Virus record (IMG/VR): IMGVR_UViG_3300043571_000425
DNA: 64,000 nucleotides
DNA from: a virus
Strand: one strand, 5' to 3'
Below are positions 21,285 through 56,700 of the stretch, piece after piece (position 1 is the first letter of the stretch; the number at the start of each line of letters is the position of its first letter). A program made the position numbers and the translations under genes. Below the pieces are notes generated by a model that was not told the DNA's origin, searched no databases, and saw nothing but the letters and a program-made list of their open reading frames with translations.

Positions 21285-21287
21285 AAT

Positions 21288-23228: not shown

Positions 23229-23287
23229 CTAACTCAATAATTGCACATTAATAAAAAATCGCCATCTTGTGACAGCGATCGCAATTA

Positions 23288-24424: not shown

Positions 24425-24477
24425 AAGTGATTGAAGTTGTGATAAAATTATCTGAATATCTATAATCTAATACAATC

Positions 24478-24651: not shown

Positions 24652-24660
24652 GAGTTAATC

Positions 24661-25272: not shown

Positions 25273-25273
25273 T

Positions 25274-26219: not shown

Positions 26220-26424
26220 TGTTTAACGCGATCGCTTTTCCATCTTGTAGGGATTGGTGCGCGATCGCATTTCTATTATACCGAATTATGTTATTATTAG
26301 TAAATACCCAAAAACGCGACTATTCAAAGTAGCCACGTTTTTAATTATCGGGTATGCGAATTATTTGTGATGTAGCAATATTTAAACAATGTTATTATTT
26401 ATGGAATAACTATTAATAAATAAC

Positions 26425-30259: not shown

Positions 30260-30941
30260 TCTAAGAATTACAGCCCATTTAGCGACATCTTTAGCAGCTT
30301 ATGACAATTGGAGTCCATCGTTAGAAGGGATTTTAGTTTATAAACTCTTGGAAGAAAATAATCTATTTTCACCTAATCCCACGCCTAGTCAAGTAGCAGA
30401 TGTCCAGACTTTTGTTGAGCAGAATTTACTACTAAAACAGGGGATAATTAAATCAGAGAAATATTGGTGTGTGAGTTCACCTTATTATGTTTTGCAAGGT
30501 GAAGCTACAGACAAATATAGAAAGCGGTGGGATAATCACGACAATAATTTAGATTGGGGTAAGCGCAAACCTAAATTTCTAACAGGTGAAGGTGCGGAAA
30601 AGTCCTATGATTTACCTCTTTACACAAGGTCAATTAATTCTATTTCTTGGTTTGCTGTAGGCGATAAGTCAAAAATTAAGGATTTATTGCAAACTGTTAC
30701 TCACATTCAGAAAAAACGTAGTTACGGAAATGGTGAAGTTAGGGAATGGGAAATAGGGATAATTTACAATGATTACCATCTGTGGCGTGACAGTAAATTA
30801 ATGCGCCCAATTCCTGTTAGATTACTTGATCAGAAAATAGATAATCCTCAGATGATCTGGGGGTGGAGAAGCCCCGCGTGGTTAGCTGCAAATAAGGAGT
30901 TATGCTATATGCCAAAGGATAATGTGATTTATGCTAAGTAA
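30252..30941 (+). CDS. RAMP protein, Cas5 (Csf3)-like
   Basis: 229 aa; RITAHLATSL..SPSLEGILVY at the N-terminus, KKRSYGNGEVREWEI G-loop; GTG start overlaps the previous stop. Confidence 0.5.
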   Translation: MDNLRITAHLATSLAAYDNWSPSLEGILVYKLLEENNLFSPNPTPSQVADVQTFVEQNLLLKQGIIKSEKYWCVSSPYYVLQGEATDKYRKRWDNHDNNLDWGKRKPKFLTGEGAEKSYDLPLYTRSINSISWFAVGDKSKIKDLLQTVTHIQKKRSYGNGEVREWEIGIIYNDYHLWRDSKLMRPIPVRLLDQKIDNPQMIWGWRSPAWLAANKELCYMPKDNVIYAK

Positions 30942-31677
30942 CGGATCTGGCGTTCAATATCCCTGGTTAAAAAAGAAAATAATCAGGGCAAAAGACTCAA
31001 TTAAAACCTGGTTAGAGCAATGCGATTATCAGGTTTACGCCAGCATTTCGGGCGGTAAAGATAGCTTGGTGATGTCGCATTTAATTAGGCAAATTTATCC
31101 TGATTGTCCTTTGGTATGGGTAAATCAGGGTTCGCTTGCCGAATGGGACGATTGCATTGAACTATTAGGGTTTTTGAAAACTCAAGGCTGGAATATTATT
31201 GAACTTTGTCCAGTTCGTGATCTGTGGCATTTATATCTTGATTATGGCGTTCCTCTTGAAGGAACAATGGACACAAAAGCCGATAAAATAATCAACCAAA
31301 AATTGATTTATGACCCTCTTAATGAGTACCAAGAACTGAATCAAATTAAGGGTTATGCGTGGGGAATACGTAAGCAAGAAAGCAGAAACCGCGCATTTTA
31401 TCTCAACAAATATGGTGAAGTGCATACGCTCAAAAACGGGTTGATTTGTTGCTCACCCGTGGCATTTTGGACTACTCAAAATATCTGGGAATATATTGAT
31501 ATGCACTCGTTAAAATACCCTGCTATTTATGATGTTGATAGAATGACAGTTAGGAATGGATGCCCAATCGGTACAACAGGTGCTAACTGGGGAAGATTAG
31601 CAGAGTTAAGAAAGCATTACCCAGATATTTATAATCAATTTGCTACTAAATTTCCACAGGTATCAACCTATGTCTAA
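30931..31677 (+). CDS. PAPS reductase family (CysH-like) PP-loop enzyme
   Basis: YASISGGKDSLVMSHL PP-loop; about 248 aa; family-typical layout. Confidence 0.85.
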   Translation: MLSNGSGVQYPWLKKKIIRAKDSIKTWLEQCDYQVYASISGGKDSLVMSHLIRQIYPDCPLVWVNQGSLAEWDDCIELLGFLKTQGWNIIELCPVRDLWHLYLDYGVPLEGTMDTKADKIINQKLIYDPLNEYQELNQIKGYAWGIRKQESRNRAFYLNKYGEVHTLKNGLICCSPVAFWTTQNIWEYIDMHSLKYPAIYDVDRMTVRNGCPIGTTGANWGRLAELRKHYPDIYNQFATKFPQVSTYV

Positions 31678-37592: not shown

Positions 37593-37886
37593 TCAGGTTT
37601 CCCCGTCCCCTTGGATGGGGTTTTGTTGTTTACAGATGAAACGATCTTTTAGTGACGGAAATTCCTCTAGAAATTGTTCTAAATTTAACAACTGAAACTC
37701 ATTTCTGAAATATGAATCTGGCACAGAATTAATGGCATTAGGGAAGGTTATTTTCCCATTTATGTCAACAGAAGGATCGTTACAAGTTTGTTGTAGCTCA
37801 ACTGTTCCGTCATCTGCTATTGCGCGAACAGAATAGTGAGTGCCATTGGTTTTAAGCCGAACGCCATAAGGATAATCTTGGTTCAT
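37593..37886 (-). CDS. hypothetical protein
   Basis: 97 aa ORF, first gene encountered in the minus-strand island. Confidence 0.4.
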   Translation of the reverse strand: MNQDYPYGVRLKTNGTHYSVRAIADDGTVELQQTCNDPSVDINGKITFPNAINSVPDSYFRNEFQLLNLEQFLEEFPSLKDRFICKQQNPIQGDGET

Positions 37887-38054
37887 CTTGGTTTTTGTTC
37901 TTTACTTCGTGAAATACCACACGCAAAATATTAACACTACCAACTAAATTACCTGCTCACCAATTAATCTTTGTCTAGCAGTTCCGAATACCAAATCAAT
38001 CACCTCATCCAGTGAGTCGGGCGCGATGTATTCATTGGTGCTGTGACGTTAGGT

Positions 38055-38456
38055 TCATTGGTTTTGGTGTGCGACAAATAACATAAGTCTGTTCTTTTCT
38101 GGGTTGATATTACAAGCTGCTAAATTCCTATTCCCCCAAATCAGAAGTAATCCTAATGGGAATTTGTCAGCAATATCGTGTGTGATAATTTCTGCGCTGT
38201 AAGCCGCTTTTGTAAATTCTATTACTTGTTGGTGAGATATAGAATCAGTTGATAATATGTCTCCTGCTTGGGTATCGTGGTGAATTTGGATGGTGTGATC
38301 GCCTATCAGGTACAGCCAAGCAAATACAGGTAATTTAGAATCAAGTTGCAAGTGGAATAACCACTCATCAAGTCTTTTTTGGTTTTTGGTTCTTTGATCA
38401 TTCATGGTTTTAGCTAGTTGATTCAGTTGTTTATTTGCTTCTTTAATTGACAACAC
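38055..38456 (-). CDS. hypothetical protein
   Basis: 133 aa, GTG start, conserved 30-nt upstream element. Confidence 0.4.
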   Translation of the reverse strand: MLSIKEANKQLNQLAKTMNDQRTKNQKRLDEWLFHLQLDSKLPVFAWLYLIGDHTIQIHHDTQAGDILSTDSISHQQVIEFTKAAYSAEIITHDIADKFPLGLLLIWGNRNLAACNINPEKNRLMLFVAHQNQ

Positions 38457-38591
38457 AATTACCTCACAACTGGATATATTGAAACTAATTTTGTAAATTA
38501 CTTAAACCTAAAAGTCGGGTAAGTGGTGATGGATTTTACTGTTGCTATGCCTTCTTCTTCCTCTTGTTTTTGGGATTGTTTTAATAATTCC

Positions 38592-39767
38592 TTAAGGGAA
38601 TCCACTTTTGATGAATACTGGTAGGATTTTCTTGACAATTTGAGGTAGTTCTTTTTGACAGTGGTTCATGTTTAACGGCGGATCAAATTTTCGGATATAA
38701 CCTATTTCCCATTCCTCCAGGTCGTTTGCATCAGTCCAGGTGAAATAAGCTATATGTTGTATTTTGTGTTCTTTAAATTCTGATATTTTTTCGTGTTTAG
38801 CATGGCGATTTCTTAGGCTAGTAGTTGATATACCAACGTACCATACACGACTAGCAGCGTCTAAAGCAAAGTAAATACCGGGTGAATCTGGCAGATTATT
38901 GTGATCTCCCAATAGCGTTTTTGCTAGTTTCTTGATAGAAAAACTAGGGATAAATTGATTGTCGTCTGCTTCTATTTCTACTGTATTTTGTGGTTCAGTC
39001 TTAGGACTATTTGGCAAAAAAGATGCTAACTCGCTATCTTTAATATATTCTTGATAAATTTCTGGCTTAACAAAAAACATATTCCAGTCTTCATCCATGC
39101 AATGAATCATCCTATCTGCTATTTCTCTTATTAAACACATCCATTTTTTATTTACGTCTTTATTGTCTGAATCACAAAAATCATTTGCGCTTTTTGGGTA
39201 ATTTTCCTCAAAAAAGCTTCTTTGTTCTTCCTCTGTCTCCCATCCGTAATAGCTAATATCCTTTTCCTGTTGGAAAAAATCATTTAATACTGCTGTTTCC
39301 CAGATGTGATTCAAGACTTCAGGACGATCCTCAGAGAAAACCGAGAATTGAATTTTACATTGATAAGATAGCCAGTATAAGGGTGCTAACGCAAGTGCCT
39401 CAGAAGCAATACCTACAGGTGAAAGATTGTATCCCAATGCGGGTAGAACTGATTTGGGATTAGTCAGAATATCACGGCAATGCCTAATCGCTATTGGCTT
39501 CAGGTGCGCCGGAAAACCAAAATCGAAGCCACTTATGCCCGTCATTAGCGAATTAACGCACTGATCTTTTTGATAATCTGTGAAATCGACATATTGACTG
39601 TATTCTCCTTCCCAAAAACATTCTTCTTCTATATCAAAATTCTCAAGGAACAAATCACAAGCCAACATATAAAGCTTAGATTCTATTCCTTTTAGTAGTA
39701 GTTTTTCCTCGCCAGTATGGTAGTAACCTGTTTCAAGTGCTGTTTGTTTTTCAATTACGATAGTCAT
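38592..39767 (-). CDS. GIY-YIG nuclease domain protein
   Basis: C-terminus PGIYFALDAASRVWYVGISTTSLRNRHAKH...EWEIGYIRKFDPPLN. Confidence 0.65.
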   Translation of the reverse strand: MTIVIEKQTALETGYYHTGEEKLLLKGIESKLYMLACDLFLENFDIEEECFWEGEYSQYVDFTDYQKDQCVNSLMTGISGFDFGFPAHLKPIAIRHCRDILTNPKSVLPALGYNLSPVGIASEALALAPLYWLSYQCKIQFSVFSEDRPEVLNHIWETAVLNDFFQQEKDISYYGWETEEEQRSFFEENYPKSANDFCDSDNKDVNKKWMCLIREIADRMIHCMDEDWNMFFVKPEIYQEYIKDSELASFLPNSPKTEPQNTVEIEADDNQFIPSFSIKKLAKTLLGDHNNLPDSPGIYFALDAASRVWYVGISTTSLRNRHAKHEKISEFKEHKIQHIAYFTWTDANDLEEWEIGYIRKFDPPLNMNHCQKELPQIVKKILPVFIKSGFP

Positions 39768-39821
39768 AAAATCCTTCCTTCGCTTTAATGTATTGTTCAG
39801 TTTCTTGATGAGCGTAATAGA

Positions 39822-40559
39822 TTAATCTGCTGTAGTTATTTCATCCGTTGCGCCTACCTTCTTATAAGGACGGTATCTAACACCGTCTTGTTTTTTAAGA
39901 TTGCAATCAGAACAGAGTATTTGATAGTCAGCTTGATTGTCATGGAAAAGTTGCCATGCTTCAATAAACGCAGTAAAGGCTTTTCTGGTTTTCTTGAACC
40001 GATAAGTGTGGATTGAGTTACATCTTTCTATTGTTGGATATTTTTCTGGTTTGTAAAATAACTCAAACTGATTGACAATAGAAATAAAGCTTTTGCTTTT
40101 ATGGTCAATTTGCAGCTTCACATTAGAACCACAACAGGAACACGCTGAATTATTTGCAAAAAGAGACTCGCCAGCTTTTTGTACTTGATAAAATACAGAT
40201 TCCCTGTAACTTTCAAGTCTACTTCTATTCTCAATTGAGTTAATAACTTTGTCTCTGTTTTTGATACTGCGCGGGGAACATTTTTTGTAGGAAAAATCCT
40301 GTTCATTGCCTTTTGCATCAACAATAACAAAGCAGCAATATTGACTGACTGCTGGAAATTCAGGATACCCTACTTTAATTGTAGAAACGCCGTCTCGCTT
40401 CTTTTTCCGCTTGTGAGGGTGAAATTCTAGTAAATCTTTTGTAAACTTGAGATCGTTGCCAGTGAGTATTCTTGCACCTTTCGCAAGCATTGATCTAGCG
40501 TGATCTTTGACATCCTCCCACGTATTGAATGACTGGTTTCCTAACTGGTATTTATTCAT
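39822..40559 (-). CDS. HNH endonuclease with an N-terminal DUF3223-like domain
   Basis: CSCCGSNVKLQIDHKS...ILCSDCNLKK. Confidence 0.6.
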   Translation of the reverse strand: MNKYQLGNQSFNTWEDVKDHARSMLAKGARILTGNDLKFTKDLLEFHPHKRKKKRDGVSTIKVGYPEFPAVSQYCCFVIVDAKGNEQDFSYKKCSPRSIKNRDKVINSIENRSRLESYRESVFYQVQKAGESLFANNSACSCCGSNVKLQIDHKSKSFISIVNQFELFYKPEKYPTIERCNSIHTYRFKKTRKAFTAFIEAWQLFHDNQADYQILCSDCNLKKQDGVRYRPYKKVGATDEITTAD

Positions 40560-40621
40560 CTTGATTTTCCTGTTTTATAAATGTGCGATCGCTATCCCAC
40601 CCACCCAGCCAGCGATCTAAA

Positions 40622-41299
40622 TTACTTGAAAACTTCAATCAGAATTGATTCAGGGTACAACCCGACATAGCCAAAGCGCGGATCATAAATCCGTTCAATG
40701 TCTATTTCCCGTTTACGGCATAGAAGGGATGCTTGCCTACCTTTTTGACTTGCAACTTTAGCAGACACTTCCAGCCCTTGTTTAACCGCAAATCCCAAAA
40801 CAGTGTATTTGTTGCCACTAGGAGCAATGTAACGCCCTTGCTCACATTCAACAGCCGCTAAACGTGCTTCAGCTAGTTTTAATTGCTGTTCCTGCTCAAT
40901 CATGCGACGTTCCTGTTCCGCCATTTGATTGACCATGACGGCTAAAGCCTGAATAGTGGTCATAGGTTGAGGTTGCTGCAATTGCTTACGGGCATTAGAG
41001 AAAGCCTTGACTAAGTTCATCTTGCACTGAATGACTCGCTCCGTATTCCGGGAAAGTGTCATCACAAACAAAACTTGATCTTCTGTCAACCAAACGAAAT
41101 TTTCTGATGTAGCACCGATTTCTCTTTTCTTCACTTCGTTTTCAAAACGGAGTGAGCCAAACCCTTGCTCTATCTGGGCTTGATACTTCTTAATGATATT
41201 TCTCATCCAGTCGGAGTGAGTAACATTCAATTCACTGGCAACCAATCGGGAATCTACGACGAGTACCCCGTTTTGCTCAAAAACTGCTAAATTAGACAT
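40622..41299 (-). CDS. Rha family phage regulatory protein
   Basis: N-terminus NGVLVVDSRLVASELNVTHSDWMRNIIKK typical of Phage_pRha. Confidence 0.7.
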   Translation of the reverse strand: MSNLAVFEQNGVLVVDSRLVASELNVTHSDWMRNIIKKYQAQIEQGFGSLRFENEVKKREIGATSENFVWLTEDQVLFVMTLSRNTERVIQCKMNLVKAFSNARKQLQQPQPMTTIQALAVMVNQMAEQERRMIEQEQQLKLAEARLAAVECEQGRYIAPSGNKYTVLGFAVKQGLEVSAKVASQKGRQASLLCRKREIDIERIYDPRFGYVGLYPESILIEVFK

Positions 41300-41524
41300 A
41301 GTAGAGTAACCCGTCCTTTCCGGGTGAAAAACTAACCATTGAAACCACCGGAATACTGCAATATTCCTGCGTGGTATGGTTACGATAATTTTATCATGTT
41401 TTCAATAGTCTTATTAATTCTTCAATAACTTAGGATACAATATTATCCAGTCGCGTGATGGTGTTGGTAGCACCGATTCACCACTGGCTGTAGGTCTTGT
41501 ACACCCACATTGATATTATTCCCA

Positions 41525-43393
41525 ATGAAAACTATTAAAATCAAGGTCAAACTTCTTGCTGAACAGGCGCAATCATGCGATCGCTACCTAGAAGAATTGA
41601 CATGGCTATGGAATCAGGTATTGGCTAATCAATTGCATAACCATTGCATCACCTGGTACAACTGGGCTGGTAAGTTGAGCGCAGATTTAGCTAAGGCGAC
41701 GGAAAAGTTAGAGAAGCTAAAACCGGAACAACAGCAGCTTGTTAGGAACTACTACCGCAGCAAAGACAAGCCAAAACTCAACAAAAAAGAACAGGAATTA
41801 GTTGCCAAATTTGATATATTTTCCCGGTGGTTGCCGTTTGACTTAGAAAATATTATTCCCGTACCTTTGCGAGTTGGCAACAGTGGCTACGAGGGCTTAT
41901 CGTGCCAGATTGCTACAGGCGGAAGTTACTGGAAACGGGACGATAATTTTAATATTCCAATCAAAACCAAAAAGGGGATTATTCACGTCAAAGGGTCTAA
42001 ATTAGTTAAGGGTGATTACCCCTGGAAACGAATACAAATAATGCCACATCAATATAAAACTTTCCCCAGTGGTAAGTTTGAGGGGAGGGAATTAATAGAT
42101 TTAATGAAGTTTGATAATTTGAACGGGTTAAACGGGTTAAGAGCGATGCAAAATCTACCTGATTTATCCGTTTCCTCGCACTACGTCGGAGGCTTGTTAG
42201 AGTTTTTCAAACAGTCATGGTTAGCATTTTTAGACCCCAAAAGGATAAACAGCAGGAAGCCAAAATTCAAAAAAGATGCTGATAAGATTAGCACTTTATT
42301 TAATAAGCAATGTCCACCAAATAAGATAGACATAAAGAATAATTCAGTTGAAATTACTGGATTTGGCAATTTAATCGTTACTGATAGAAGTTGGGGGGAA
42401 AGACTGAACCTAGATAGCAGTCTTCCTCGGACGTATATGCTAACCAAAAAAGCATCTGGCTACTATATCAATATTGTCCTTGCTCACCCATTGCAAGAAG
42501 AAAAAGCGGTTTTAACAAAGAAATTACCCAAGGTTAAAAAGGAGCTTGGAGAAGACAGCCAAGAGTACGAAGATATTAAGTCTAAAATCAAGTTTATTGA
42601 ACAGCAAATCAAGGATTCGTTAATCGTAGTGGGAAAGAATTTAAGTGTAGGGATTGACCCTGGAGTACAGGCTATTGTGGCGACAGATCACGGGGCGTTA
42701 TTCCTCCCAAATCTAAGCAGGGAAAGAGTGTCAATCCATATAGAGGAACTACAATCAAGGCTTGATAACCTTGAATTAATTAATGATAAAAAGTGGAAAG
42801 ATTCAGGAAGCAAAGGTGCTAGACCTAAGACAAAAAACGAGATTAAGATACAAGATAAAATTACCAGATTACATGAACGTGGGGCTAATTCTTCTAATGC
42901 CTTTAATCATAAAATGTCAACTAGATTAAGCAGGACTTACGAGCATATAGCATGGGAGGATACCCAGTTAACCAATCTCCTAAAACAAACAGAAGCTAAA
43001 GCATTGCCTGAAGGGGTGGGATATGCTCACAACGGCGCGTCTGCTAAACGGGGTTTAAATTGGATTATGAGACAAAGATGCTTGGGTGATTTAAAAGCTA
43101 AAACTAAGCAAAAAGTTGAGAACAGAGGCGGTAGTTTTCATGAACCACCTGCTAACTACAGTTCTCAACTATGCCATTGTTGTCATCAGAAAGGTGAGCG
43201 ATTATCACAGTATGAGTTTGTCTGCAAAAACTCTGAATGTGAGTTATTTGAACAGGTGCAACAAGCTGACACCAATGCGGCTAGGAATCACAAACATAAT
43301 AGTAGTTTTGAACTAGGAGAAGTCAAATATCACAACACTAGATTGGTTTACCAAAAACCCAAGAGATTTAAAAAGAAACGCTTGACAAAGTAG
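41525..43393 (+). CDS. TnpB-like RuvC nuclease = candidate type V (Cas12-like, V-U-type) CRISPR effector
   Basis: 622 aa from the ATG (TTG alternative at 41510). RuvC-I VGIDPGV, RuvC-II IAWEDTQL, zinc finger CHCCHQ..VCKNSEC, RuvC-III QADTNAARN. A CRISPR array lies 350 bp downstream on the same strand. Confidence 0.8.
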   Translation: MKTIKIKVKLLAEQAQSCDRYLEELTWLWNQVLANQLHNHCITWYNWAGKLSADLAKATEKLEKLKPEQQQLVRNYYRSKDKPKLNKKEQELVAKFDIFSRWLPFDLENIIPVPLRVGNSGYEGLSCQIATGGSYWKRDDNFNIPIKTKKGIIHVKGSKLVKGDYPWKRIQIMPHQYKTFPSGKFEGRELIDLMKFDNLNGLNGLRAMQNLPDLSVSSHYVGGLLEFFKQSWLAFLDPKRINSRKPKFKKDADKISTLFNKQCPPNKIDIKNNSVEITGFGNLIVTDRSWGERLNLDSSLPRTYMLTKKASGYYINIVLAHPLQEEKAVLTKKLPKVKKELGEDSQEYEDIKSKIKFIEQQIKDSLIVVGKNLSVGIDPGVQAIVATDHGALFLPNLSRERVSIHIEELQSRLDNLELINDKKWKDSGSKGARPKTKNEIKIQDKITRLHERGANSSNAFNHKMSTRLSRTYEHIAWEDTQLTNLLKQTEAKALPEGVGYAHNGASAKRGLNWIMRQRCLGDLKAKTKQKVENRGGSFHEPPANYSSQLCHCCHQKGERLSQYEFVCKNSECELFEQVQQADTNAARNHKHNSSFELGEVKYHNTRLVYQKPKRFKKKRLTK

Positions 43394-43528
43394 ATGGTTT
43401 TAGTTATTATCAATTTACCGCAGTTTGGACGGGATGACTGGTTCTGTCAGTCTATGACTTGATGATTTTACGATCAAAAAGTAAGGGAGATGGTGACTAC
43501 TCCCATAGACCAGCCGGAACTATGGCTG

Positions 43529-43560
43529 GCAATCCTCAGAAGGGATTAATCATTTTGCAA
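43529..43560 (+). ncRNA. anti-repeat (candidate tracrRNA core)
   Basis: GCAATCCTCAGAAGGGATTAATCATTTTGCAA. Its reverse complement aligns to repeat positions 2-33 with about 28 Watson-Crick and 2 G:U pairs. A weaker second copy lies at 43618-43642. Confidence 0.55.
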
Positions 43561-43742
43561 TCATCGAAGCAGCGTGGCTAAAACAAACCCGCGCGCAAAT
43601 CCAGAACCTAGACAAGCGAAGGGATTAGAGCTATCTTTGCAGAATATCAAAAGGGATTTAAGCGGCTGTAATGGACTTTTTGGATTAGCTCGCGCAAACA
43701 GCCTCTAGGATTCAAGTATATCAAGGGTTTCAGGTTGCCGCA

Positions 43743-44700
43743 CTTGCAGGATGACTAATCCCTTCTGAGGGATTGAAACAAGTACAATTGATGGAAATAA
43801 AATATTAAGCATAGACTTGCAGGATGACTAATCCCTTCTGAGGGATTGAAACAATTTTGAGCTTGACATAATCATCGTTATGTCACTTGCAGGATGACTA
43901 ATCCCTTCTGAGGGATTGAAACGTCATGCTTATCAGATGAACTTCACCCAAATACGCTTGCAGGATGACTAATCCCTTCTGAGGGATTGAAACAACTTGC
44001 TCCTGCACTGCCTTGCAGGATGACTAATCCCCTTGCAGGATGACTAATCCCTTCTGAGGGATTGAAACAGGCGTGAGTTTGGCGTGACGTGGCGTAAATC
44101 TCTTGCAGGATGACTAATCCCTTCTGAGGGATTGAAACCTTAGATGTTAAGACTGTCAGAAAATATCAAGGTAGACTTGCAGGATGACTAATCCCTTCTG
44201 AGGGATTGAAACGTCGGTTCTTCATTAATTTGCTTGCAGGATGACTAATCCCTTCTGAGGGATTGAAACTACCGTTAAAGTGTTCATGAATCTTTTGGGG
44301 ATGACTTGCAGGATGACTAATCCCTTCTGAGGGATTGAAACAGTGTGTGCAGTCAAATACTTAGATATTCCATCTGGATTGCAACTTGCAGGATGACTAA
44401 TCCCTTCTGAGGGATTGAAACAACTTATGACCCTAACATTGCTTGCAGGATGACTAATCCCTTCTGAGGGATTGAAACCGACTGATAGCTGATTTTTCCA
44501 AATAAACGGAGTCCTTGCAGGATGACTAATCCCTTCTGAGGGATTGAAACTGTACTCTTTTGGCAATTGTGGTTAACATCTTCCTACGCTCCTTGCAGGA
44601 TGACTAATCCCTTCTGAGGGATTGAAACTTCTAATATCTGCGAGCGATATTTATTAAAACCATCTTGCAGGATGACTAATCCCTTCTGAGGGATTGAAAC
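43743..44700 (+). CRISPR. CRISPR array, 14 identical 37-nt repeats + 1 truncated repeat, 13 spacers
   Basis: Repeat CTTGCAGGATGACTAATCCCTTCTGAGGGATTGAAAC (7-bp hairpin AATCCCT/AGGGATT, 3' tag ATTGAAAC). Spacers are 33-43 nt, plus three short ones of 18, 20 and 20 nt. Confidence 0.97.
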
Positions 44701-44744
44701 GAGGCGTGGCAACTATAAGGAAAATCCCTTACCAGTTGCCAGTT

Positions 44745-47700
44745 ATGAATTTAGGCGAACTAATTGTTGACCTGTCACTCGACTATGCAGAATTTAACCA
44801 GTCATTAGAACAGGCGAAAAAAGCCGCATCTAGCGCCGCCGCAAGTATTGAGAAATCATTCCAGAAATTATCCCTATCCGTTGACATTGACGACAAGTCA
44901 CTAACGGATTTAAACCAGCACATCAACATATCCGTACAACACTTAAAGCAAGCTAATACCTTCTTTAGAAACAACCCGATTACAACTTACGTCAATGATG
45001 ACAGCCTCACGGACTTAAACGAACACCTCAACGTGAAAGTCCGTCATTTAAAAGAGGTTAACCATTTTTACGCCCAAAATCCTATCACCGTCCGCACCAA
45101 TACCGGACAACTCGATGAGCTAGAGGAACGACTAGACAGACTTGGTAACAGAAAGGTGACGATGGAAGTTGACACCATAGTTCTGAACCAATACCAGGAC
45201 AAAACCGCAGAAGTTGTGGAACAGGCTATTTCTAATGCCATCCGTCAAATGCAAGTTCCCCAATCTAGCGGACAATCGGCGCAACAATCACCACAATCTC
45301 AACAAAATAGAGTCCAGCGGGTTCAACTGGGATTAGACCCTTTGAGGTCAATTGGCGAGGGCGTTTTTGAAAATGTCGGGAAACAGTTGAGCAAAGGCGT
45401 TGGATCGTCAATGCAGGACTCATTGGGCGTGGATATGAAGTCTTTTACTCAAATAGCCTCTAACTCAGTTCTACGTTATTTTGGCGTTGGTAAAAAAGCG
45501 CAAAAAGACCCCAAAAACAATAAATCAAAAATCAAATCTATTGTTGAGGATGCAATTAAAGATTACTCTACGGCTGTTGACAAAGGGTCAGGATCTATCA
45601 GAGGTGAACTTGACGACGTTGATTTAAGTTCAGTTGATGCGATCGCAAGAAACAGTTTATTGAGATATTTTGGAGTAGGCAAAAAAGCACAATCAGACCC
45701 CAAAAATAACCAAGCTAAGATTAAATCTATAATTGAAGATGCTGTTAAACAATATTCAGGAACTGATGTAAAAAAAGAAAATTCCGGCGTTATATCAAAT
45801 ACATTCTCTGAAATAAATAAAGCATTTTCAGAAACAGTTAATAAAGGTGTTCAGGGAATAGCAGAACGAGCTAAACTCGCAACTATCAAGGAAGTTAGAA
45901 GGGCATCAACTAACGTTTTAGCCAACTCATCAAGTGGTGTTAGAGACAGCGTAAATGGTCTTTTTGACGCTGCCGAAAGTGGTAAAAAAGGGTCTGTCAG
46001 TCAATATATCGGGCGTGGTTTAGCATCACAATCCAGGAAGGCTGTGGAAGGAACTTTTAGCAATTTATTCCCTACAGTTGCACCGATAGTTAAAGAATTT
46101 TTAGCCACTGGGAACAAACCACCTGTAGAAAAACAAGCTCCTAAACAACGCCCAGCAGACGGATTATTAGAAGCGGCCAATCAACTCAAGGAAGCCGCGA
46201 AGGCAATCAGTGAATCAGCGATTAAAGTACAATCTGTAGCACCTGTTATTCATGAACAAATAGCAGATCCTTGGGGTAGTGCTGACTTAACGCCAGTTCA
46301 AATTCCACTGAAACCAGCGAAACAGAAAACCAAGAAACAAGAGCCTGAACCCGAATTAGTTTTACTAGAACTTCCACAACAAACACAACAGCATTTTAAG
46401 ACATTAAATGCAGAAGTAGGGAAGAATACCGCTAAATCTCTGGAGTTTTTAAAAGCAACTACACAGGAAAATATTAAGCAACAAACTACACAATCAATCG
46501 CTAATATTAAGGCTGCTTTAGCTGCTATTAATCAATATTTCAAAACAGAATACAAGCAGGTAAAAGACGCTGTAGATAATGCAAAATCTACAGGGCATAT
46601 TGACGATATTAACGCTGCTAGAAGTGCAGCTAAAAATTATCAGCGTAGATTATCTGGTGCGGTTAAAGAGATAGATAGAATTGTTAAATCTGGCGAGGAT
46701 GCTGGTTTTAGTAAAGAATTTGGATCTGAATTAAGTCAAGTACACGCAACTGGCAAAGGTCAACTTGTAGCTAGTGACAAGCGTGTTGGACAGCAATTAG
46801 GTGGATTAAACTTACTCGAAGCTAATCAGTTTAAGAAAGACGTAAAAACCTACACAGAACTAGCTAAAAAAGCGGGCATTGAGATTGACGCAGGATTAAT
46901 CAAAGGATTAGATATTGGTTCAGCGGGTGTAACGGCTGAAACACGCGACCTGCTAAACGGATTGATCGCCACTGTTAAGAAAACAATGGGTATTCAGTCG
47001 CCATCATGGGTAATGATGGGAATTGGTGCGATGATTGCGGCTGGTTTAGGACTAGGTATTAAAAACGGTGTCGTTGACGTTTCTAGTGCCGTTGGGCTGT
47101 TAACGGATGCTATTGGGGATGGATTAAAAGATATTCAGTCTATTCCATCAGAAGGAATTGAGGCATATAATCAGGCGTTAGAAAATGCAGTAAGCGACAA
47201 ATCGGAACTGACCAAGAAAGTATTTGAGGAAGCTAAGGGAGCAAGCAAAGCGACATTACCTGGAATGGTATTAGGTACAACCATGATGGGTGTTGCTAAC
47301 GCGGGTTTAGTCCCTAAATCAATTGAAACACCGTTAAGGCATTTAGGAGCATTTTATCAAGGGAAAGCAGGGGTTCATCAGATGAATCCGCAATTGGCTA
47401 GAGAGGCTGAAATTGCAACTATCTTTAATATGATGCAATTGGCTGAAAAAGGCGACGGGTATTTTCCTGATAGTGGTTTTGTGGGCATGGTTAAACACAA
47501 AACTTTGCCTACTTTAGCTCATACATTGGGAGGTTTTAACTACACACAAAACAAAGACAAGGGGTTGCAAATTAACGATGTTTACGACTGGCATCAAGAT
47601 ACTAATACAGACAAAAATACACCATTCAAACTACCTAAAAATTTAGGTAGTAAAATATATAAATTCCTGGAGTCAAAGAAATGGCTACAAGATTTATTAG

Positions 47701-50700
47701 GAGTTGAAGAGAATTTATTTGGTAATACCAAAGCATTTACTAAATACAATAAAAAAACAGGGCGTGAATTATTCTCAGTCCTTAACACTCAATCTGGGAA
47801 TGATTTTCAATTAGGGCATTCAGTCCATTCTGAATTAATTGGTGGTAATCCCTACATTCAAACGCACCGATTGGATGGGAAAGGGCTGGATGATTTAACA
47901 GACTTAGCAACAAACCCTTATATTGCATCTAAAGGCAATTTTGGGCAATTCTTGAATCACCCTAAAATTCAAGAATACGTTTTAGGCGGTAGTCAACAAA
48001 ATCAACAACCGTCTGGATTATTAGGACAATTATTACCAGCATTAAAGAAAGATTTAGGCAGCAATCCCATACTCACAAATCTATTCAGTAGTGCTACAAA
48101 AGCAATTGGTAAAGGTGGCAGTTTCAAAGATATTGGTACTAATCTAATAACGTCATTTGGGCAGGGTATTTTATCATCAGATGATGGTGTTTTTGGAATA
48201 CTTGGAACTTTTGCTAAGTCTGCAATTGGTTTAGTTAAAAAGATTTTTGGTATTGCATCACCATCTAAGATATTTCATTGGATAGGATTGATGCTTGGGC
48301 TAGGATTGGAAGAAGGTGCAATGTCTTCTTTGTCTAAGGCAAATCAAAAAATAACTGGTTCAGTAAAAGCTACGACAAATAACGCAAAAACAATAATTCA
48401 GGGGGATCATTCACTTGGATTAATTGGGAACATACCCCTAGGCGTTAAAAAAGAAGTTTCAATAGGCAATCAAGTACAGGGGGCTGACGGCACTGTGTCT
48501 GGTAGTGCTGGGTATGTAAAAAACGTTCCTTACACAATAAATGACTTACGGAATCACGTAGGAGATATACTATCTGCTAACAAAAATTACGGGACTTCGG
48601 TAGTACCAGGACTGAGTGGTATCTTGGAAAATAATTTATTTCCGACTTTTAGCAAGGCGTTTAAAACAATAAAGTCTTCTCCTGTTTATACTCAAAAAAA
48701 TCAACAAAAAAATCCTCAAGCTGTATATGCTGCAACACCAAATATTCACTCACAGCCTACGATACTAAACCACGCTCAACATGCATTTAACACATTATCA
48801 AGTATTCACTCACAGCCCACTAGGTTAAACGCACCTCAGCAATCACAAGCTACAGTTTTACAGCCTACCAATACAATTTTACAGCCCTTACAGTCAAATA
48901 CTCTAAGACAGGCTAATACAGTTTTACAGCCTACCAATACAATTTTACAGCCCTTACAGTCAAATACTCTAAGACAGGCTAATACAGTTTTACAGCCTAA
49001 TTGGATGTTCCACAATCCAACAAGTCCCCAAACCGTATCTGCTGCTATCCCCCTACAGCAAATTACGCAGCTAGGGACTGAATTAGGGAATAACGTAATT
49101 TCCGCAGTCGGGAACAGCATTAAACAGACAAGGGGGTTAAGCTATCCAACATTAGGGCAATATATGAGAAATGCCGTAGTTGCTGCGGGTTCTGCTATGT
49201 CAGGGTCACTTATGGGGATGTTAGGAGGGCATTTAAAAACCTTCTTCCCCATGATCATGAAAGTTGCTTTACCAATGGCAGGTGTAGCGGCGTTGAAACT
49301 TGGTGACGGCATTACAGGCAACTTACTGAAAAATGGAATATTCAAGCAAGGCGGATTTTTAACCGAATTACTCAGTGCTTTTAGTGGCATTAAACTGGGT
49401 TCTATGGGTGGTGCAGGTATTAAATCTGCGATTACCGGGATTACACAGTTTTTGGGCGTATTTCCGATGCTGTCACCATTGGCAAGAATTGGATCAATGG
49501 CTGCTAATGCGGGTGTAGTGGCTCACGATGTTTTTAGTGGTGGCAACGGGGGACGGAAATCAGTTAATACAGTTTTAGAAAACAAGACTACTGAAAACCT
49601 GAAAGAAGCGGGTTTAAACTCTACAGGAAATTCCACCGCAGATTTAGTAGAGAATTTGGCAGAAACTACCGTCGGTGCTTTGTTTAGGATGATTGGGTTC
49701 GATGGTGTAAAAGCATCCGCCGTACAAGCATTAATCAAGGGTAAAGTTAAGCAACATTCTGAACAAATCGCTAACGCCGTTGGTGGTGTTGGTAACGGTC
49801 AAATATCCGCATTGATAGATGGATACGTAAAAGGCGATTCTACCCAATTGGCGGGTACAGCGGAATCCATGCTCAAAAACATGGGTATCACCGGATTGGA
49901 CTCTAAGCAAATTAAGCTTGCTGCTAATGCAATTACGGCTACCCTATCAGGTCTTCATGCCAAATTCGGACAGGAAGGATTTGGACTTGGTGAGTCAATT
50001 AATAAGGGATTTAGAAAATCTTTAGCAAATCTAGCTAACGCCAAAGATGATCTAGAATACAACCTCAAAAAGGCTGTAGGAAAAGCCAGCGCAGGTGACG
50101 TAATCGGCAACATCTTCAAACGGATGTCACGCGGTTTCGTTGTTGACAAGGGGATGTTTGATGAAATGTGGAATCAGGTGGGAGCATCCTTTAAAAAAGG
50201 TGCTTTCAAAGGCATGAGTGGCAACGAACAAGAGGGAATGTTCGGGAATATGATGGGATTCATGGCATCCGCTACAGCTATGTTTGCGCCGATTACCGCA
50301 ATGGCTGCATCTCTAGCTCCTTTATTCCTCCCTCTAATGCCTATAATCGCGGGTATTGGCGGTGCTATCAGGATGGTAATGCCCCAATTGAGCAAGCTGT
50401 TTGAGGGTATGCAACGGGTAGAAACCTTGCAACGCCGATTCACCTTTTTGGGTGGCTCTAAAGCGGGCGGTATCGCCGAATTGAACTACGCCAAGGGTGT
50501 CGCCAATCAAATGAATGTTCCGTCAGAAGTTGCGGCCAACTCATATTCTCAGTTGGCAATTGCGTCCAAAGGAACAAAGATGGAGGGGCAAGGCGTAAAA
50601 GACTTGTTTGAAGGTATCACCGCTTCCCTAAGTGCTTTAGGCATCAGCGGTCAAGATGCCTCCCTGGTATTTATGGCATACACTCAGATCATGGCAAAAG

Positions 50701-53700
50701 GCAAGCTGTCAATGGAAGAATTGAGACAGCAGTTAGGCGAGAAATTCCCACCGGCAATGGGTGTATTTGCTAAAGCAATGGGTGTTTCTGTGGCAGAAAT
50801 GAATGATTTAGTCGCAAGCGGTTCTATTCTGTCACAGGATATTTTACCCAAGGTCGCCAAAGTCTTAAAGCTGGATTACGGTAAATCAGCTTCAGGTAGT
50901 GCCGACAGCCTAGTTTTGGCACTTACTAAACTTGGTAACGTAGGGTTTGAAATCACTTCAATATTTACTGATAAACTATCTGGAGCGCTTGCAGGGATTG
51001 TTAATTTTGCATCGAACGGACTGGGGTTTCTAAAAGATTCTCTAGGTACTTTGATCCCATTAGGGCAATCTTTTGTAATCGGTTTTACCGCAACGATAGC
51101 GGTAGGATTGACGGTCATGATGACAAAAATTAAGCCTGTAGTAGTGCTATTGGGAACTCTACAAAGCCTTGTATTATCAACCTTTTCAGCGATTGCATCC
51201 AATTTAATGCCAATGATCATAGGCATAACCTCAGACGTTGCAGACGGTTGGTTAGGGGCTGAAAGTGATTTGATGCAAAACATGACGCGCGGGTTCACCA
51301 ATATGTTTACCGGATTGTTTTCGGCAATTGATTCCGGTGTCCGTGCCATGTCAGGCAAACCACTATTTGCTGAAGGTTTAATCGGTGGTAAAGGTGTAAA
51401 TCTAATAGTCGCTGGTATAGATGCTATCAAGGGAGCGTTGGGTGCGGTGTTTTCGATTATTCCCCCTGGAGTCGTTGAACTTGGGGCGTTGGTGTTCATG
51501 CTTGAGCAAGCGATCGCTCTTGGAAGTATGGCACTTGGTCCGGCGTTAGTCGGTGGCGGAAAAGCATTATTGGGAATGGTAGTAGGCATCAAAAACGCTT
51601 TCATCGGAACAGTTGGGACGGTGAAGATTTGGGGTGAGTTAATGATGACCTCAATGAACGCTGGTGCAGTAGCTACAGAAAAAGCAGCGGCTAGAGCGAT
51701 GATTGCTAATCAAGGTTGGAAAATGAGTCTGATAGCACTCAGATCAATGGCTACTCACGTGGCTATTGCGATGGGTATCTTGATGTTTTCCAAAGGTGAT
51801 TTCAGCAATCCACTGGGTGACAAGATTGGCGAAACTAGCAAGAAAGTTACAGTAAATCTAAATAACATGAAATCGGCTGCTTTATCGCTGGGTGAGGCGT
51901 TTGATAAAGCCGCTGGACAGTTGGTGAACTTAAACAATAAATTGACGGATACCCTGCCATCTAAAGGCGTACAGCTTGATATTCGTAACTTCTGGGATAA
52001 GACGAAAAGCACTACTTCAGATGATTTGATTCGGAATAGTAACCGCGCAGAAGTTGAAAGACGACAACGCGAAAAAGACGGCAAGCAAACTTTTGGCGAT
52101 AAAGCCTTAAACGTTGCGGACAAAGCTCTAAAATACAGCGGGATTACAACACCAATGTATTTGTACAACTCTTGGTTAAGCGATCGCTTAGTCCCAAAAA
52201 CGGACGATGCAACGATTGATTTAGTCAAGAAATACGGACTAGAAAAATATATTGCCCCTGACAAAAACCTACGGGTTGATATGGCGCAATCCCAAGTAAT
52301 CAAGGCTTTGCAGGATTCAGAAGCTAACACCAAAGCATTAGCAAGCACCTATTCTAAATTAGGACTAACGAAACAGACTCAACAAAATTATTTAATCCCT
52401 GAAAAAATGGGTCCAGTCAGCAACACTTTTGATATTGACGCGCAGATTAAAGCCGCTAACGACAAAATAGCGCGGCTTAATGAATTAGATAAAAAATATA
52501 CTTTTTATCAAAGCAGTAGAGCTGATGGAAGAATCTCAAAAGAAGAGGATCTATCAGGTTTTAGTTTTGGCGGAAAAACAGCAAATCCAGAAAGAATAAT
52601 CAGGGGTGATTTGGATATTGAAAAAAACATTATCAGGGAACAAATAAAACAACTTGAAAACCAGCGTGCATCAACAGCCCAAGGTGTGGAACGGTTCAAA
52701 TCTAACAAAGAAATTCAACTGATTGACGCGCAGATTTTAGCTAGAGTTAAGCGTGGTGTACAACTTGAAAAAGCCAACCCTTCTGATGCTACAAGAAAGG
52801 AGCTTGGTGGAATTGATACCGCAGTCCTGGAACTCAAAACCAGACGGGAGAAAATCATCAATGGCATGGGTTCAGATGTCAAAGACGCAAAAGAAACCCT
52901 TGATATATTAGAACAGCACAAGAAAGACATCCTGGATGGTGCTGATGAAGCCACTAAATCATTTAACATCCAAATCCGGCGAGCGATCGCCAAAAACATA
53001 GATCAGCAAATTGAGCTTGCTAAAAATGCTTTTGACATTGCACAAAAATCCGTACCCGCGCAGTTTGGAGACGACCTGTACAAAAATGCAGCTAACAAGT
53101 TACGAGACACACAAATTGCATTTGATAGGACTTCCAGTGCTGATAAAATTGCATCTGCAACCTTCAGGGCATCGGTTAATAGTTCTTCTGAAAGATCCGC
53201 TAATGTAGCCCCTATTCTGGCGAATAGACAAGTTGCTGATTTAGAAAAACAGCAGAAAGAATTAGACAATTTAACATCTCGCAAAAAAGAAACTATTGAC
53301 GCTTATGCAGCTATTCTCAGATATGGTGCGAACAAAGATGTTAAAGATGAACTAGAAAAACTCAAAGCCGAAGTTTTAAAAGATGATGAAAGCTTGGCTC
53401 AACTACAAGATGATGTTGCTACAGCAAAGCGCGGTATCCGTCAAACTTTAGTGGATCAAACTAAGCAAGTAGCCGACTATTACCGCACCGCAGTTAGAGA
53501 AGCTCAAGCTGTTAGCATCGAGTTCCAAAAAGCCCAAAAGACCCTTGAGAACTCCAGAATGCAAAACAAACTGAGAGAGGCTTTAATAGGTGCTGGCGAT
53601 AACATCTACACTCAGTTTATTGAAGGAATTATTAATATAATTTCGCAAACAACTGAGATTGAAAAACAACAATTAGAAGCCAGGAAACAACGCATTGACT

Positions 53701-56700
53701 ATGAGAATAATATTGAGGATATCCGGTTACAAGCGGCAGAATTACAGCGCAGCTTACCAGGGAAGATAATTCCGCTAGATTCTAGCATGGCGGATAATTT
53801 TAATCTCAGTCTTGAGGAGATAAACGGCACGGTTAACACGATTAACAACAGTGTTAAAAATGTCGCAAATACCCTGTCGAATGACGTTGTAGATGCCGCT
53901 AAAAAAGCTAATACTGAACTGGATAAACTGAACCAAAGTATCAAAACCATTGACAATAGCAGCAATTCATGGATAGAAGGTTTTGGCAGTAAGTTTGCTG
54001 ATTTGACTAAATCACTTGAAAACGGTTTTGATGGTGTTGGAAATGCGATCGCTGATATGACACTAAAAACCTCTAGCTGGTTAGCGTCAATGGCTACCGG
54101 ACAAGGTTTGTTGCAGAATTTAGCAGGTGGCGTTAAATCGGTAGTTAGTGGCGTATTTGGACAACAAGCGGGACAGCAATTAGATCAGGGTGTTCAGCAG
54201 CTTGCTAGTAATCCGATTGGGGCTATCAATAACTTCTTGGGCGCAAAAAACAAAATTCTCTCCCCAATCCAAGGAACTACAGTAGAAGATTTACTTAGGT
54301 ACAAGCCGTCGTATCAGCAGGGCTTTTATGGAAGTAGAGACAAAGGTGCGAGACAACACAGCAAGGTGGATTTCGACTCACGCGCCAAAGCCGGACAAAA
54401 TGCTGAAATAATTGCCAGCCTACCGGGTACAGCTACAGCTAAAAAATGGACTGGCAATAGCGGCGGCGTGTTCATTAATAGTATTTTGCCATCAGGTCAA
54501 AAAATAACCCTGGAATACGGGCATCTGTCACTTGAGAGCATTAAAAAGACTTTTGGTGGACAGCTTGGCAAAAGTATTGAGGTTCAGGCGGGGCAAAAAC
54601 TAGGCAACGTGATTCATGATGCTTTATCATCTGGTCCACATTTAGATTTTGGGGTGAGACTGAATGGTAAATACATTGAACCTCAGAAATTCTTGCAAGA
54701 TTTCATGGGTGGTAAATATGGTGGGGTGGTAAGTGGAAAAACCATGCAACAGCGTCAACCAGTCCCCAAAGTCCCGCCCATTCCCGGTCTAGATCCACGC
54801 ATAGATACCAAATTCCTGCAAACTGTAGCTAATATAGCTCAAAGCGTAGGAGCGAAACCTGAAGACCTGCTCAAAACAATGCTGTATGAAACAGGTGGTA
54901 CACTTTCACCATCTGCCAGAAACAGCCGCACCAGTGCCACAGGCTTAATTCAGTTCATGCCAGCTACAGCTAGAGGGCTGGGAACGAATATCAACGCTTT
55001 AGCACAAATGAGTCCACAAGATCAATTAGTATTTGTTCAAAAATATTTGAAACAAAATAGTAGGGGGCAAAAACTGGACTCTTTTAGAAAAGTTTTGTCA
55101 ACTGTTTTTGCTGGTAATCCTAACGCTTCATTGGGAATAGGTGATGGGGACATTACCCTTGGTAATTACCTCAAAAAAGCAGAAAGCCGATATGGAAACA
55201 CAGCACGACAATTAACACAAATTGCTATGCAAGGCGGAGCAATAGACCCAAATTCAATGCAGCAAGCGGTAACTCAAGCGGGTAGACTCAAGTTAAATAC
55301 AGCAGCCCAGCAACTCCAAACCAACCAAATCAACAGCAATTTAACTCCTGAACAAATTAGAGAAAATGAACTGAGGCAAAGGTTAGAAGCTTACAGATTT
55401 ATTAGATCAACTCGAAAATCGGCATTGGGAGACATCAGCAGCACGAAAGATTCCACATTAGGAACGCAAAGAACCGTATTAGAGGGACTATCCCCTAATA
55501 TGAGCAATGCTGACAGATTTGGAATTCAGCTTGCCGATTTGCGCCGAAAAATAGAGAAGGATATGGAGGCACTACAGCAGATTATTGATGATACGGATGG
55601 AGCGATCGCACAAAAACCAGATTTACAGGCTGCTTTTAATTTGGCGATGAAGAAATTCCCCAATGATCCAAAGTTAGCGGCTGATGCAGTTAAAGCAAAT
55701 GATCTGACTTTCAAAGCGACAGCGTTCCGTAATGCAGAAGCCAAAAAGGATCTGGCTTTCTTGAAATCTAATGCTGACGACATACTCAAAGCGTCAATAG
55801 CAGATTTTGACAAAAAAGAATTTTTCAGATTAAGTGAACAGGATATAGCGCAACAAACGAAGGTTATTGAGCAACTACAACAACAGCTACAGTCAATACA
55901 AAAATTAGAAGAGATTGACCCGCTGAATCCGTTAGTTTTAAAGATTCCGTCACTCCAGAAAAATATTGACTTACTATCATTAAACCGTGACCAATACCAA
56001 CAATTGCTAGACCTCCAAAAACGGTATTACGAAGGTGGTGGTAAGGGTGGCAACATGAGCGAAGAGGCTTATCAGAAGGAATTTAAAGCCATCCTCAATG
56101 TTAATTCTGTCAAAAAAGAAGGCATTGATCTTAACTTCAATTATGCCAATACGGTTAAGAAGATTGAGCAGGCACAAGTTGAATTAGATACGTCAAGCAA
56201 AATGTTTGACCTTTTGAATCAGAATAAATTTGATCTCCGTTCCTCAAACATTGAAACGCTAAAAAGTGGAATGGCGAATGAATTTTATACTAATCGCCTA
56301 ACAAGAGATTTGGAGACAGAAAAGGAGATGGAACGCGCCCGGCGTGCCAAAGAACAATTAGCAATTGATGTCAATGAATATAATCTTAAATTCCCAGAAA
56401 ATGCTTTTAATGCAGATCAAATCAAGGAAATGACCGCCGCATTGGATGAATTGAATAAGAAAAAATTAGACGACATCACCAGATCGGCGAAAACTTTTGA
56501 TATGGCATTAAAGGAGATGTTCCAGGAGAATCTAATCAATGGATTGACATCTGGATTCACTGAGTTAATAAACGGCACTAAATCTTTTGGTGACGTGCTT
56601 AACGACTTAGCGAATAACATTTTAAATGGGGTGCTAAATATTGCTCTGAACTCATTACTTAAAGGTGCGTTCGGTGGAGGCGGGCTGTTTAACTTCAACA

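Follow-up and report, generated by a model that had tools for sequence, protein, structure and literature searches.

The locus described here lies in a 64,000-nucleotide stretch of viral DNA (IMG/VR virus record IMGVR_UViG_3300043571_000425; this whole stretch is called the window below), in which a gene for a TnpB-derived type V effector is followed by a CRISPR array. An open reading frame (ORF) at 41510-43393 (+) was followed on the same strand, at 43743-44700 (+), by 14 exact 37-nt repeats, CTTGCAGGATGACTAATCCCTTCTGAGGGATTGAAAC, with 13 spacers between them, and the tape-measure gene began at ATG 44745, 44 nt past the end of the last repeat. The description of the window as a cyanophage with such an effector and its own 14-repeat array beside tail genes, made in an earlier reading of the letters (the sequence-only reading), was thus borne out. 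The effector gene, cas12p, was placed at 41525-43393 (+) and encodes 622 aa plus a stop; this length and the N-terminus MKTIKIK agree with the homologs and with the construct in the Protein Data Bank (PDB). The alternative start TTG 41510 was ruled out because it lies 15 nt too far upstream and the homologs have 622 aa from MKTIKIK, so that of the 622-627 aa given in the sequence-only reading the lower figure was retained. Likewise, TTG 44694 is merely the ORF-caller start of the tape-measure gene and falls within the last repeat. The module as a whole (cas12p, a trans-activating CRISPR RNA (tracrRNA), a leader and the array; 41331-44700, +) moves as a block, from one phage backbone to another and to Anabaena plasmid-like elements. 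Its left boundary is an upstream non-coding segment (41331-41524, +), which travels with the module and at which homology with sister contigs restarts. Two palindromes were seen upstream of cas12p, GGAATA-N6-TATTCC (41350-41367), at the left module boundary, and GGATA-N6-TATCC (41433-41448); they may represent operator sites or have arisen by chance.

The window protein was compared with solved structures using phmmer. The data showed a match to PDB chain 9jfs_A, 'Cas12p' (E = 0, 1146 bits), with 79.2% identity over 615 aligned residues (4-618 of the TTG-started ORF), end to end and without large gaps. The entries 9JFS and 9JG3 are cryo-electron microscopy structures of the 'Cas12 hacker' with thioredoxin, single-guide RNA and DNA. 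By homology to 9jfs_A, the protein contains WED/REC, a thioredoxin-binding (TB) insertion, PI, RuvC and a zinc finger. The three RuvC motifs and the zinc finger noted in the sequence-only reading were present as GIDPG (D378), AWED (E478) and QQADTNAA (D582), and as CxxC...CxxxxC (C550, C553, C567, C572). An alignment of 16 family members, with identities as low as 31%, showed the RuvC triad and C550, C553 and C572 to be invariant; C567 was conserved in 15/16 and C127 in 14/16. The residues of the TrxA pocket, the catalytic site and the zinc finger were taken from the Cas12p preprint (Wang et al., bioRxiv 10.1101/2025.01.20.633832). All 14 pocket residues (W44, Y45, W47, L51, W102, F105, L107, I110, I111, V113, L115, C127, I129 and I172) were identical to those of Cas12p-1, and three of the four contacts with the protospacer adjacent motif (PAM), D197, Q262 and K332, were also the same.

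Other type V classes were examined as candidates. The C2c8 (V-U2) model ranked first in the NCBIfam scan and generic TnpB models ranked lower still. However, V_cas_c2c8 gave 187.3 bits against a cut-off of 350, with a good alignment in the C-terminal half only, and the V-U-type class named in the sequence-only reading was replaced by Cas12p. IS200/605 or IS607 TnpB was rejected at 32-34 bits against model cut-offs of 350-425, with no TnpA found among the scanned ORFs of the window. Cas12k of type V-K CRISPR-associated transposons was also rejected, as the sequence-only reading had expected, because the RuvC site is intact, no Tn7-type genes were found in the window and the Cas12k chains in the PDB gave no significant match. 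Over its N-terminal 370 residues, which include the TB insertion, the protein resembled Cas12p-type proteins only, and matches in non-cyanobacterial genomes spanned just residues ~357-618. Judged by its sequence, the window effector is a member of Cas12p / type V-P ('Cas12 hacker'), a class already known, in line with the earlier suspicion that the class might not be new. Since this class has been described and structurally solved, the window locus is not a new system, and it is possibly one of the twelve type V-P members already catalogued.

A sequence complementary to the repeat was found between cas12p and the array, at 43532-43569 (+). It is the 3' part of the putative tracrRNA, which was absent from the sequence-only reading. 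The predicted tracrRNA promoter (43382-43410, +; -35 TTGACA, 17-nt spacer, -10 TATTAT) was the best promoter-like site in 41200-44900, with 11/12 matches; its -35 box overlaps the last codons of cas12p, and in 7/9 loci both boxes were conserved, with constant spacing to the scaffold start. The predicted transcription start (~43417) is the first base of ACCGCAGUUUGG..., where a 115-nt scaffold (43417-43531, +) begins. The scaffold motif ACCGCAGTTTGGRCGGG was invariant across nine diverse loci and occurred a single time in the window. GUUU at tracrRNA nt 7-10 (43423-43426) is the pseudoknot partner of the 3' AAAC of the repeat, placed as in the published structure. The covariation analysis of the scaffold showed that 97.3% of the cells were paired and that 13 of 25 pairs carried double (compensatory) changes, while none of 500 shuffles reached the observed covariation score or pairing and slid controls were 27-50% paired. 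No Rfam family matched the tracrRNA; the sole match, to CRISPR-DR7, was below threshold and spurious.

The anti-repeat was then paired with the repeats. It pairs with repeat positions ~1-32, and against every repeat of the array its arms were 27-36 nt long and 81-89% complementary. The repeat:anti-repeat duplex of ~31 bp had a predicted energy of -43.4 kcal/mol (RNAduplex), in comparison with -13.4 +/- 3.3 for shuffled repeats. The anti-repeat changed along with the repeat in loci L006, L017, L019, L021 and L022, and the cognate pair ranked first in 6/9 loci and second in two more. Because the anti-repeat pairs with the repeat and co-evolves with it, the array can be tied to the window effector.

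Tracr-like scaffolds were also seen apart from the gene-array arrangement. Locus L001 (Cylindrospermopsis virus CrV-01T, MH636380.1) has a Cas12p-like gene, 45% identical, without a CRISPR array, and three scattered scaffolds, at 6799, 7372 and 13988, begin with CCGCAGTTCGGGCGG, with GUUC replacing GUUU (0.2 expected by chance). Two of the three run on into CATTG... and one into ...ATTGAAC; these dispersed scaffolds look like stand-alone natural single-guide RNAs. On an NblA-bearing cyanophage contig (L015, 3045-3894; also in L016), the strand opposite to cas12p carries an orphan second tracr scaffold with an 8-repeat array, ~2 kb upstream of that gene.

The spacers, repeat and leader of the window array were also investigated. 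Ten of the 13 spacers were 33-43 nt long and two were 20 nt, while 'spacer 4' consisted of 18 nt and a truncated 20-nt repeat copy (44012-44031, +). The repeat carries an AATCCCT/AGGGATT hairpin and a GAAAC tail. The CRISPR leader (43570-43742, +), with a conserved block (CAGAACCTAGACAAGCRAAGGGATTAG...), was conserved across the window, L006, L014, L017, L019 and L024, and it contains a promoter-like site at 43609-43637 (TAGACA-17-TATCTT, 9/12 matches). Compared with the type I-D-linked DR5 repeats of Nostocales hosts listed for the host range of cyanophage N-1 (PMC4916379), the window repeat showed 68-76% identity and had the hairpin stem and the ATTGAAAC tail in common; the 26-29 matches compare with 19.1 +/- 2.1 (maximum 26) for shuffles. 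None of the Rfam CRISPR-DR families was significant for the window repeat, and the repeat was not found in the JGI metagenome collection or in the phage and plasmid collections searched.

Candidate targets were identified by comparing the spacers with plasmids and phages. Three of the 72,556 plasmid records in PLSDB were matched, all of them Anabaena plasmids, and two were then compared at full length; the null of shuffled spacers reached a maximum fractional identity of 0.78-0.80. Three spacers of the sister locus L004 matched pANA03 of Anabaena sp. 90, each with a 5' flank of GTT: spacer 13 in a hypothetical gene (33/34), spacer 17 just before the DUF3987 gene (30/35) and spacer 6 in the DUF3987 gene (34/37 with a 3-nt indel). 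A GTN flank in 3/3 protospacers has a chance of ~2e-4. In the window, spacer 13 (44629-44663, +) matched pANACY.06 of A. cylindrica PCC 7122 at 2672-2706 (31/35), in the CyRepA1 replication gene. This match beat all 276 shuffled-spacer placements (maximum 0.80), and the probable target family of this spacer is the CyRepA1 replication gene carried by Anabaena plasmids. Spacer 3 (43923-43956, +) had a weak candidate target in pANA03 at 18031-18064 (26/34), in the same gene as the L004 spacer 13 protospacer and 25 nt from it; taken alone, this match was not above the shuffle null. The matches of window spacers 13 and 3 are to diverged homologs. The L004 locus is 99% identical to the window, with the same PAM-contact residues and 294/297 identical positions in the tracr/leader region, and the GTN PAM therefore very probably applies to the window Cas12p too. 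All 47 distinct spacers were also compared with 50,697 GenBank phage records, in which no target was found, and comparison with the window and every fetched locus gave self-matches and chance 13-15-mers only.

The surroundings of the module were compared between the window and related loci. The module boundaries are recombination breakpoints common to other phages: homology to the window restarted exactly at 41331 in L003, L004 and L007, at 41305 in L006, and at 41396 in L014, which has a different phage backbone. The block of gene, tracrRNA and array was found beside the terminase in L014, beside a Mu-like portal in the NblA-bearing cyanophage L015, and in cyanobacterial chromosomes in L021 and L022. 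In CrV-01T the 45%-identical gene sits directly upstream of the tape-measure gene. L017, a contig of Anabaena sp. WFMT, shared four blocks of 76-89% identity, including the protelomerase, with pANACY.06 (L109, NC_019775.1), and its Cas12p module occupies the place of a hypothetical gene of this protelomerase/CyRepA1 plasmid. This similarity indicates that plasmid-like elements carry Cas12p as well, and that these belong to the family that a window spacer apparently targets. Full-length relatives in 185,579 species genomes were confined to three cyanobacterial metagenome-assembled genomes. Since the relatives sit in cyanophages, Anabaena elements and cyanobacterial genomes, the host range is placed in the filamentous cyanobacteria (Nostocales).

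Spacer content was examined in the IMG/VR sister contigs, whose effectors differ from that of the window by 3-9 residues (L003, L004, L007/L008) or by 44 residues (L005/L006). Sister arrays with the window-type repeat held 19, 14 and 2 spacers. None of these spacers was shared with the window, and one was common among the sister arrays; between any two arrays of sister loci with 3-7 amino-acid differences, no more than one spacer recurred, and no trailer-end spacer was in common between arrays, although the trailer flank was identical. As the spacers differ and the flanks are near-identical, spacers are replaced at a much higher rate than the flanks change, in part through recombination. The L007/L008 arrays hold internal fragments of the leader end. 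In L006, tandem arrays (8231-9315) follow a single cas12p: one with ~11 repeats of ATTGCAAGGCGGCTAATCCCTTTTAAGGGACTGAAAC, to which its anti-repeat is matched, and after it a window-type leader copy with three repeats of window type. Spacers 5 and 12 of L007/L008 share 17 nt at their core, in opposite orientation and between different flanks, a pattern suggesting that diverged copies of one target were sampled twice.

The origin of the spacers was considered next to the gene content of the window, which was scanned with Pfam (plausible ORFs of at least 90 aa, obvious antisense or shadow ORFs being skipped). No Cas1, Cas2, Cas4, Cas6, TnpA, Tn7 protein or thioredoxin was found among these ORFs, and the lack of adaptation and transposition genes noted in the sequence-only reading held. 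Type I-D adaptation is characterized by a 37-nt repeat, a 35-nt spacer and a GTN PAM (Kieper et al. 2018). The Cas12p arrays showed all three features: spacer lengths had a mode of 35 nt (48 spacers of Cas12p arrays), and the PAM part rests on the L004 protospacers. Cas12p itself uses just ~20 nt of guide, and adaptation, Cas1, Cas6 and type I-D are unmentioned in the Cas12p preprint (Wang et al.). Because repeat, spacer length and PAM match type I-D and the phage is without adaptation genes, trans-adaptation by the host type I-D system is the simplest reading, and the spacers were most likely supplied in trans by host type I-D Cas4-Cas1-Cas2.

Alternatively, spacer diversity might come mainly from recombination, in which arrays or segments are swapped between co-infecting phages and plasmid-like elements, and not from Cas1-Cas2 in trans. 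This alternative deserves weight, though we think it unlikely. It is favored by the tandem arrays and second leader in L006, the internal leader fragments in L007/L008, the one spacer common to otherwise different arrays, the lack of common trailer-end spacers despite an identical trailer flank, and the truncated repeat and 20-nt spacers of the window. However, recombination reshuffles spacers and cannot create them, and the GTT PAMs and the 35-nt mode indicate selection of the Cas4-Cas1-Cas2 type upstream; the two processes are compatible.

With these data, we consider it highly probable that the locus is a self-contained type V-P CRISPR interference module on a long-tailed phage of filamentous (Nostocales) cyanobacteria. 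In the proposed mechanism, the tracrRNA would be transcribed from its own promoter, starting at ~43417, and the array from the leader. The anti-repeat would pair with the 5' ~31 nt of the repeat, the tracrRNA GUUU (nt 7-10) would form a pseudoknot with the terminal AAAC, and the adjoining spacer would provide the guide with its first ~20 nt. The complex is expected to recognize double-stranded DNA with a 5'-GTN PAM and to cut both strands via D378/E478/D582, and a host thioredoxin docked in the pocket around C127 is expected to be necessary for activity, as in Cas12p-1. Host type I-D Cas4-Cas1-Cas2 would install spacers in trans, inter-phage recombination would reshuffle the arrays, and the targets would be other mobile elements of the same host, which for the L004 locus demonstrably include Anabaena plasmids. 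The thioredoxin-activated, PAM-dependent staggered double-strand cleavage proposed for the window Cas12p is transferred from Cas12p-1. We infer that dependence on thioredoxin holds in cyanobacteria and that the module benefits the phage, and likewise that it is used to compete with plasmids resident in the host and with other mobile elements.

Several results weigh against this assignment. The window protein diverges from Cas12p-1 by 21% of its sequence, including the PAM contact N261, which is K in the window. The window's own two spacer matches were imperfect (31/35 and 26/34) and had the flanks ATC and CTC, not GTN; the evidence on PAM and targets thus comes from the sister locus L004. For 43 of the 47 distinct spacers, neither INPHARED nor PLSDB gave a match. 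Exact scans of IMG/VR with seven probes (among them PAM-proximal parts of window spacers 1, 3, 5 and 12, the 17-mer common to two L007 spacers and the one shared spacer) gave nothing, or just the arrays themselves, and window spacer 9 had no match in the JGI metagenome collection. The exact 3' 23-mer of the repeat was not found in 185,579 GTDB species-representative genomes. In addition, no strong plus-strand sigma-70-like site for a cas12p promoter was found in 41331-41524, and no terminator was detected between the array and the tape-measure gene.

A further possibility is that the array is of host type (DR5, type I-D), processed by host Cas6 and used by host Cascade, with the TnpB-like gene unrelated or one of two users. 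The hairpin, the ATTGAAAC tail, the 37-nt length and the 68-76% identity shared with Nostocales DR5 are consistent with this, as are the spacer mode of 35 nt and the GTN PAM, both equal to type I-D, the lack of cas genes found in the phage, and the precedent of the cas-less array of cyanophage N-1. However, the ~31-bp anti-repeat pairing co-varies with the repeat across loci, gene, tracrRNA, leader and array move as one block, and this architecture has been biochemically validated for Cas12p-1. For these reasons exclusive use of the array by the host is improbable, though host type I-D may use it in addition, and a purely host-used array, which the sequence-only reading had allowed for, does not fit the co-evolving anti-repeat. 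Even less probable is an effector that lacks catalytic activity or only binds, and that acts as a regulator, silencing genes without cutting DNA. This possibility was raised for V-U2 in the CL131 paper (PMC6293099), and the window protein is small for a Cas12; on the other hand, its D-E-D triad is intact and invariant, and the 79%-identical Cas12p-1 cuts both strands and interferes in vivo. An ordinary IS200/IS605 or IS607 TnpB with an omega RNA, landed in the phage beside coincidental repeats, can be dismissed almost entirely: Pfam and NCBIfam detect a TnpB-type RuvC/TNB core and GenBank labels phage homologs 'transposase', but the TnpB scores lie far below the cut-offs, no TnpA is present, the N-terminal 370 residues are of Cas12p type only, and 14 repeats with variable spacers do not make a single fixed guide.

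The self-contained type V-P module might also be read more broadly, and we propose this tentatively. It would be doubly parasitic, depending on host thioredoxin for activity and on host type I-D Cas4-Cas1-Cas2 for spacers, which would explain the DR5-like 37-nt repeat, the 35-nt spacers and the GTN PAM. Exchanged between cyanophages and Anabaena/Dolichospermum protelomerase plasmid-like elements, it could serve as a weapon against each other's replication genes in a phage-plasmid-host conflict. In cyanobacteria, photosynthetic electron flow reduces thioredoxin, and nuclease activity might therefore also track the light/redox state of the infected cell.

The locus was compared with known systems. 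Type V-P is a phage-encoded family of 500-700 aa proteins encoded beside tail genes, with a 37-nt repeat, a 185-nt tracrRNA and a pseudoknot between AAAC of the CRISPR RNA and G7-U10 of the tracrRNA (Wang et al.). Cas12p-1 has a GTN PAM, makes staggered double-strand cuts, and interferes with plasmid and phage in vivo once thioredoxin is bound; it is strictly activated by host thioredoxin in a hydrophobic TB/REC pocket around C127 (Wang et al.). The window locus resembles Cas12p-1 in its domain set, RuvC triad, zinc finger, C127 pocket, 37-nt repeat with AAAC end, GUUU of the tracrRNA and phage-borne position by tail genes, and probably also in the GTN PAM, seen here as GTT on the natural targets of L004. 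The sequences of repeat and anti-repeat likely differ between the two. Hosts of type V-P remain to be determined according to the preprint (Wang et al.), which is also without a Nostocales host, Anabaena plasmid targets or adaptation; these come from the window and its relatives. The novelty therefore lies not in the effector class but in an ecological and mechanistic context not found in the preprint. Cas12p now has a place in bloom-forming filamentous cyanobacteria, on their phages and plasmid-like elements, and the Anabaena plasmid sites with GTT PAM of L004 are its first natural protospacers. Spacers turn over fast without cas1 or cas2 and are likely supplied by the adaptation module of the host's type I-D system, and the natural use of a phage-encoded CRISPR system and its updating become directly testable questions.

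The likeness to TnpB with its omega RNA (IS200/IS605) lies in the RuvC/zinc-finger core, a guide scaffold starting at the 3' end of the gene, and a pseudoknot. In contrast, the window protein has extra N-terminal REC/TB/PI parts, a separate tracrRNA and multi-spacer array take the place of one fused guide, and TnpA is absent. Cas12k (type V-K) is similar in size, cyanobacterial, and has a tracrRNA with pseudoknot, a PI domain laid out similarly, a GTN PAM and no adaptation genes of its own. The RuvC site of Cas12k is inactive, and it acts with Tn7-like TnsB/TnsC/TniQ. However, RuvC is intact in the window protein and the window has no Tn7 genes. Aphanizomenon phage vB_AphaS-CL131 (putative V-U2/C2c8, PMC6293099) is likewise a Nostocales cyanophage in which a TnpB-like effector is followed by an 11-repeat array lacking cas1/2, with an antirepressor/Rha-type gene in the divergent flank. 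However, its protein has 466 aa and is 28% identical over 64% of the query, and its 36-nt repeat is unrelated (47% identity); no tracrRNA was reported in that paper (PMC6293099). Nostoc cyanophage N-1 (PMC4916379) also carries a phage-borne array of DR5-like 37-nt repeats without adaptation genes. That array has no effector or tracrRNA beside it and is thought to depend on host Cas proteins, whereas the window array has both.

Upstream of the module, the segment 37952-41330 (-) was replaced in sister phages: it was swapped for unrelated sequences of 1.7-2.2 kb in L003 and L007, which elsewhere were 98.5-99% (L003) and 95-99% (L007) identical to the window. This segment lies outside the CRISPR module and encodes a Rha-like regulator (40622-41299; Pfam 1.6e-9, PHROG 1e-19) and a DUF3223 protein of 245 aa (39822-40559), and a GIY-YIG match at 38592-39767 was below threshold. 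The minus-strand 'nuclease island' described at 37593-41299 in the sequence-only reading is better described as a hypervariable cassette; its Rha-like regulator was solid, but the nuclease label found weak support, with the GIY-YIG match sub-threshold and the 245-aa protein a DUF3223 member. By eye, the DUF3223 protein has a C-terminal Cys-rich HNH-like motif. The cassette also holds two small ORFs and adjoins tail-assembly genes.

The phage genes of the window included DnaB, a large terminase, a Mom-like protein, a sigma factor, dCTP deaminase, ThyX, a methylase, KilA-N, a tail completion protein and the tape measure. The large terminase had only remote (<28%) relatives among cultured phages, and the phage backbone is therefore not that of a known phage. 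The right-hand neighbor of the module, the tape measure protein (44745-57101, +), has 4118 aa with TMP_3 and Peptidase_M23 domains (domain scan), and a 533-aa segment shared 46% identity with the CrV-01T tape measure (2e-125). The gene is unusually long and contains internal tandem repeats, such as a 66-nt unit present 2.3 times at 48851-48999. At 3228-3530, a 153-nt unit occurs as a tandem duplicate (96% identical) inside ORF 3089-4087, which has weak helix-turn-helix/sigma-like matches. A cluster at 21213-27342 holds tRNA-Gly(UCC), the Mom-like protein, the phage sigma factor, dCTP deaminase, ThyX and an N6/N4 methylase, and a protein resembling phosphoadenosine phosphosulfate (PAPS) reductase is encoded at 30931-31677; together they hint at a modified phage genome.

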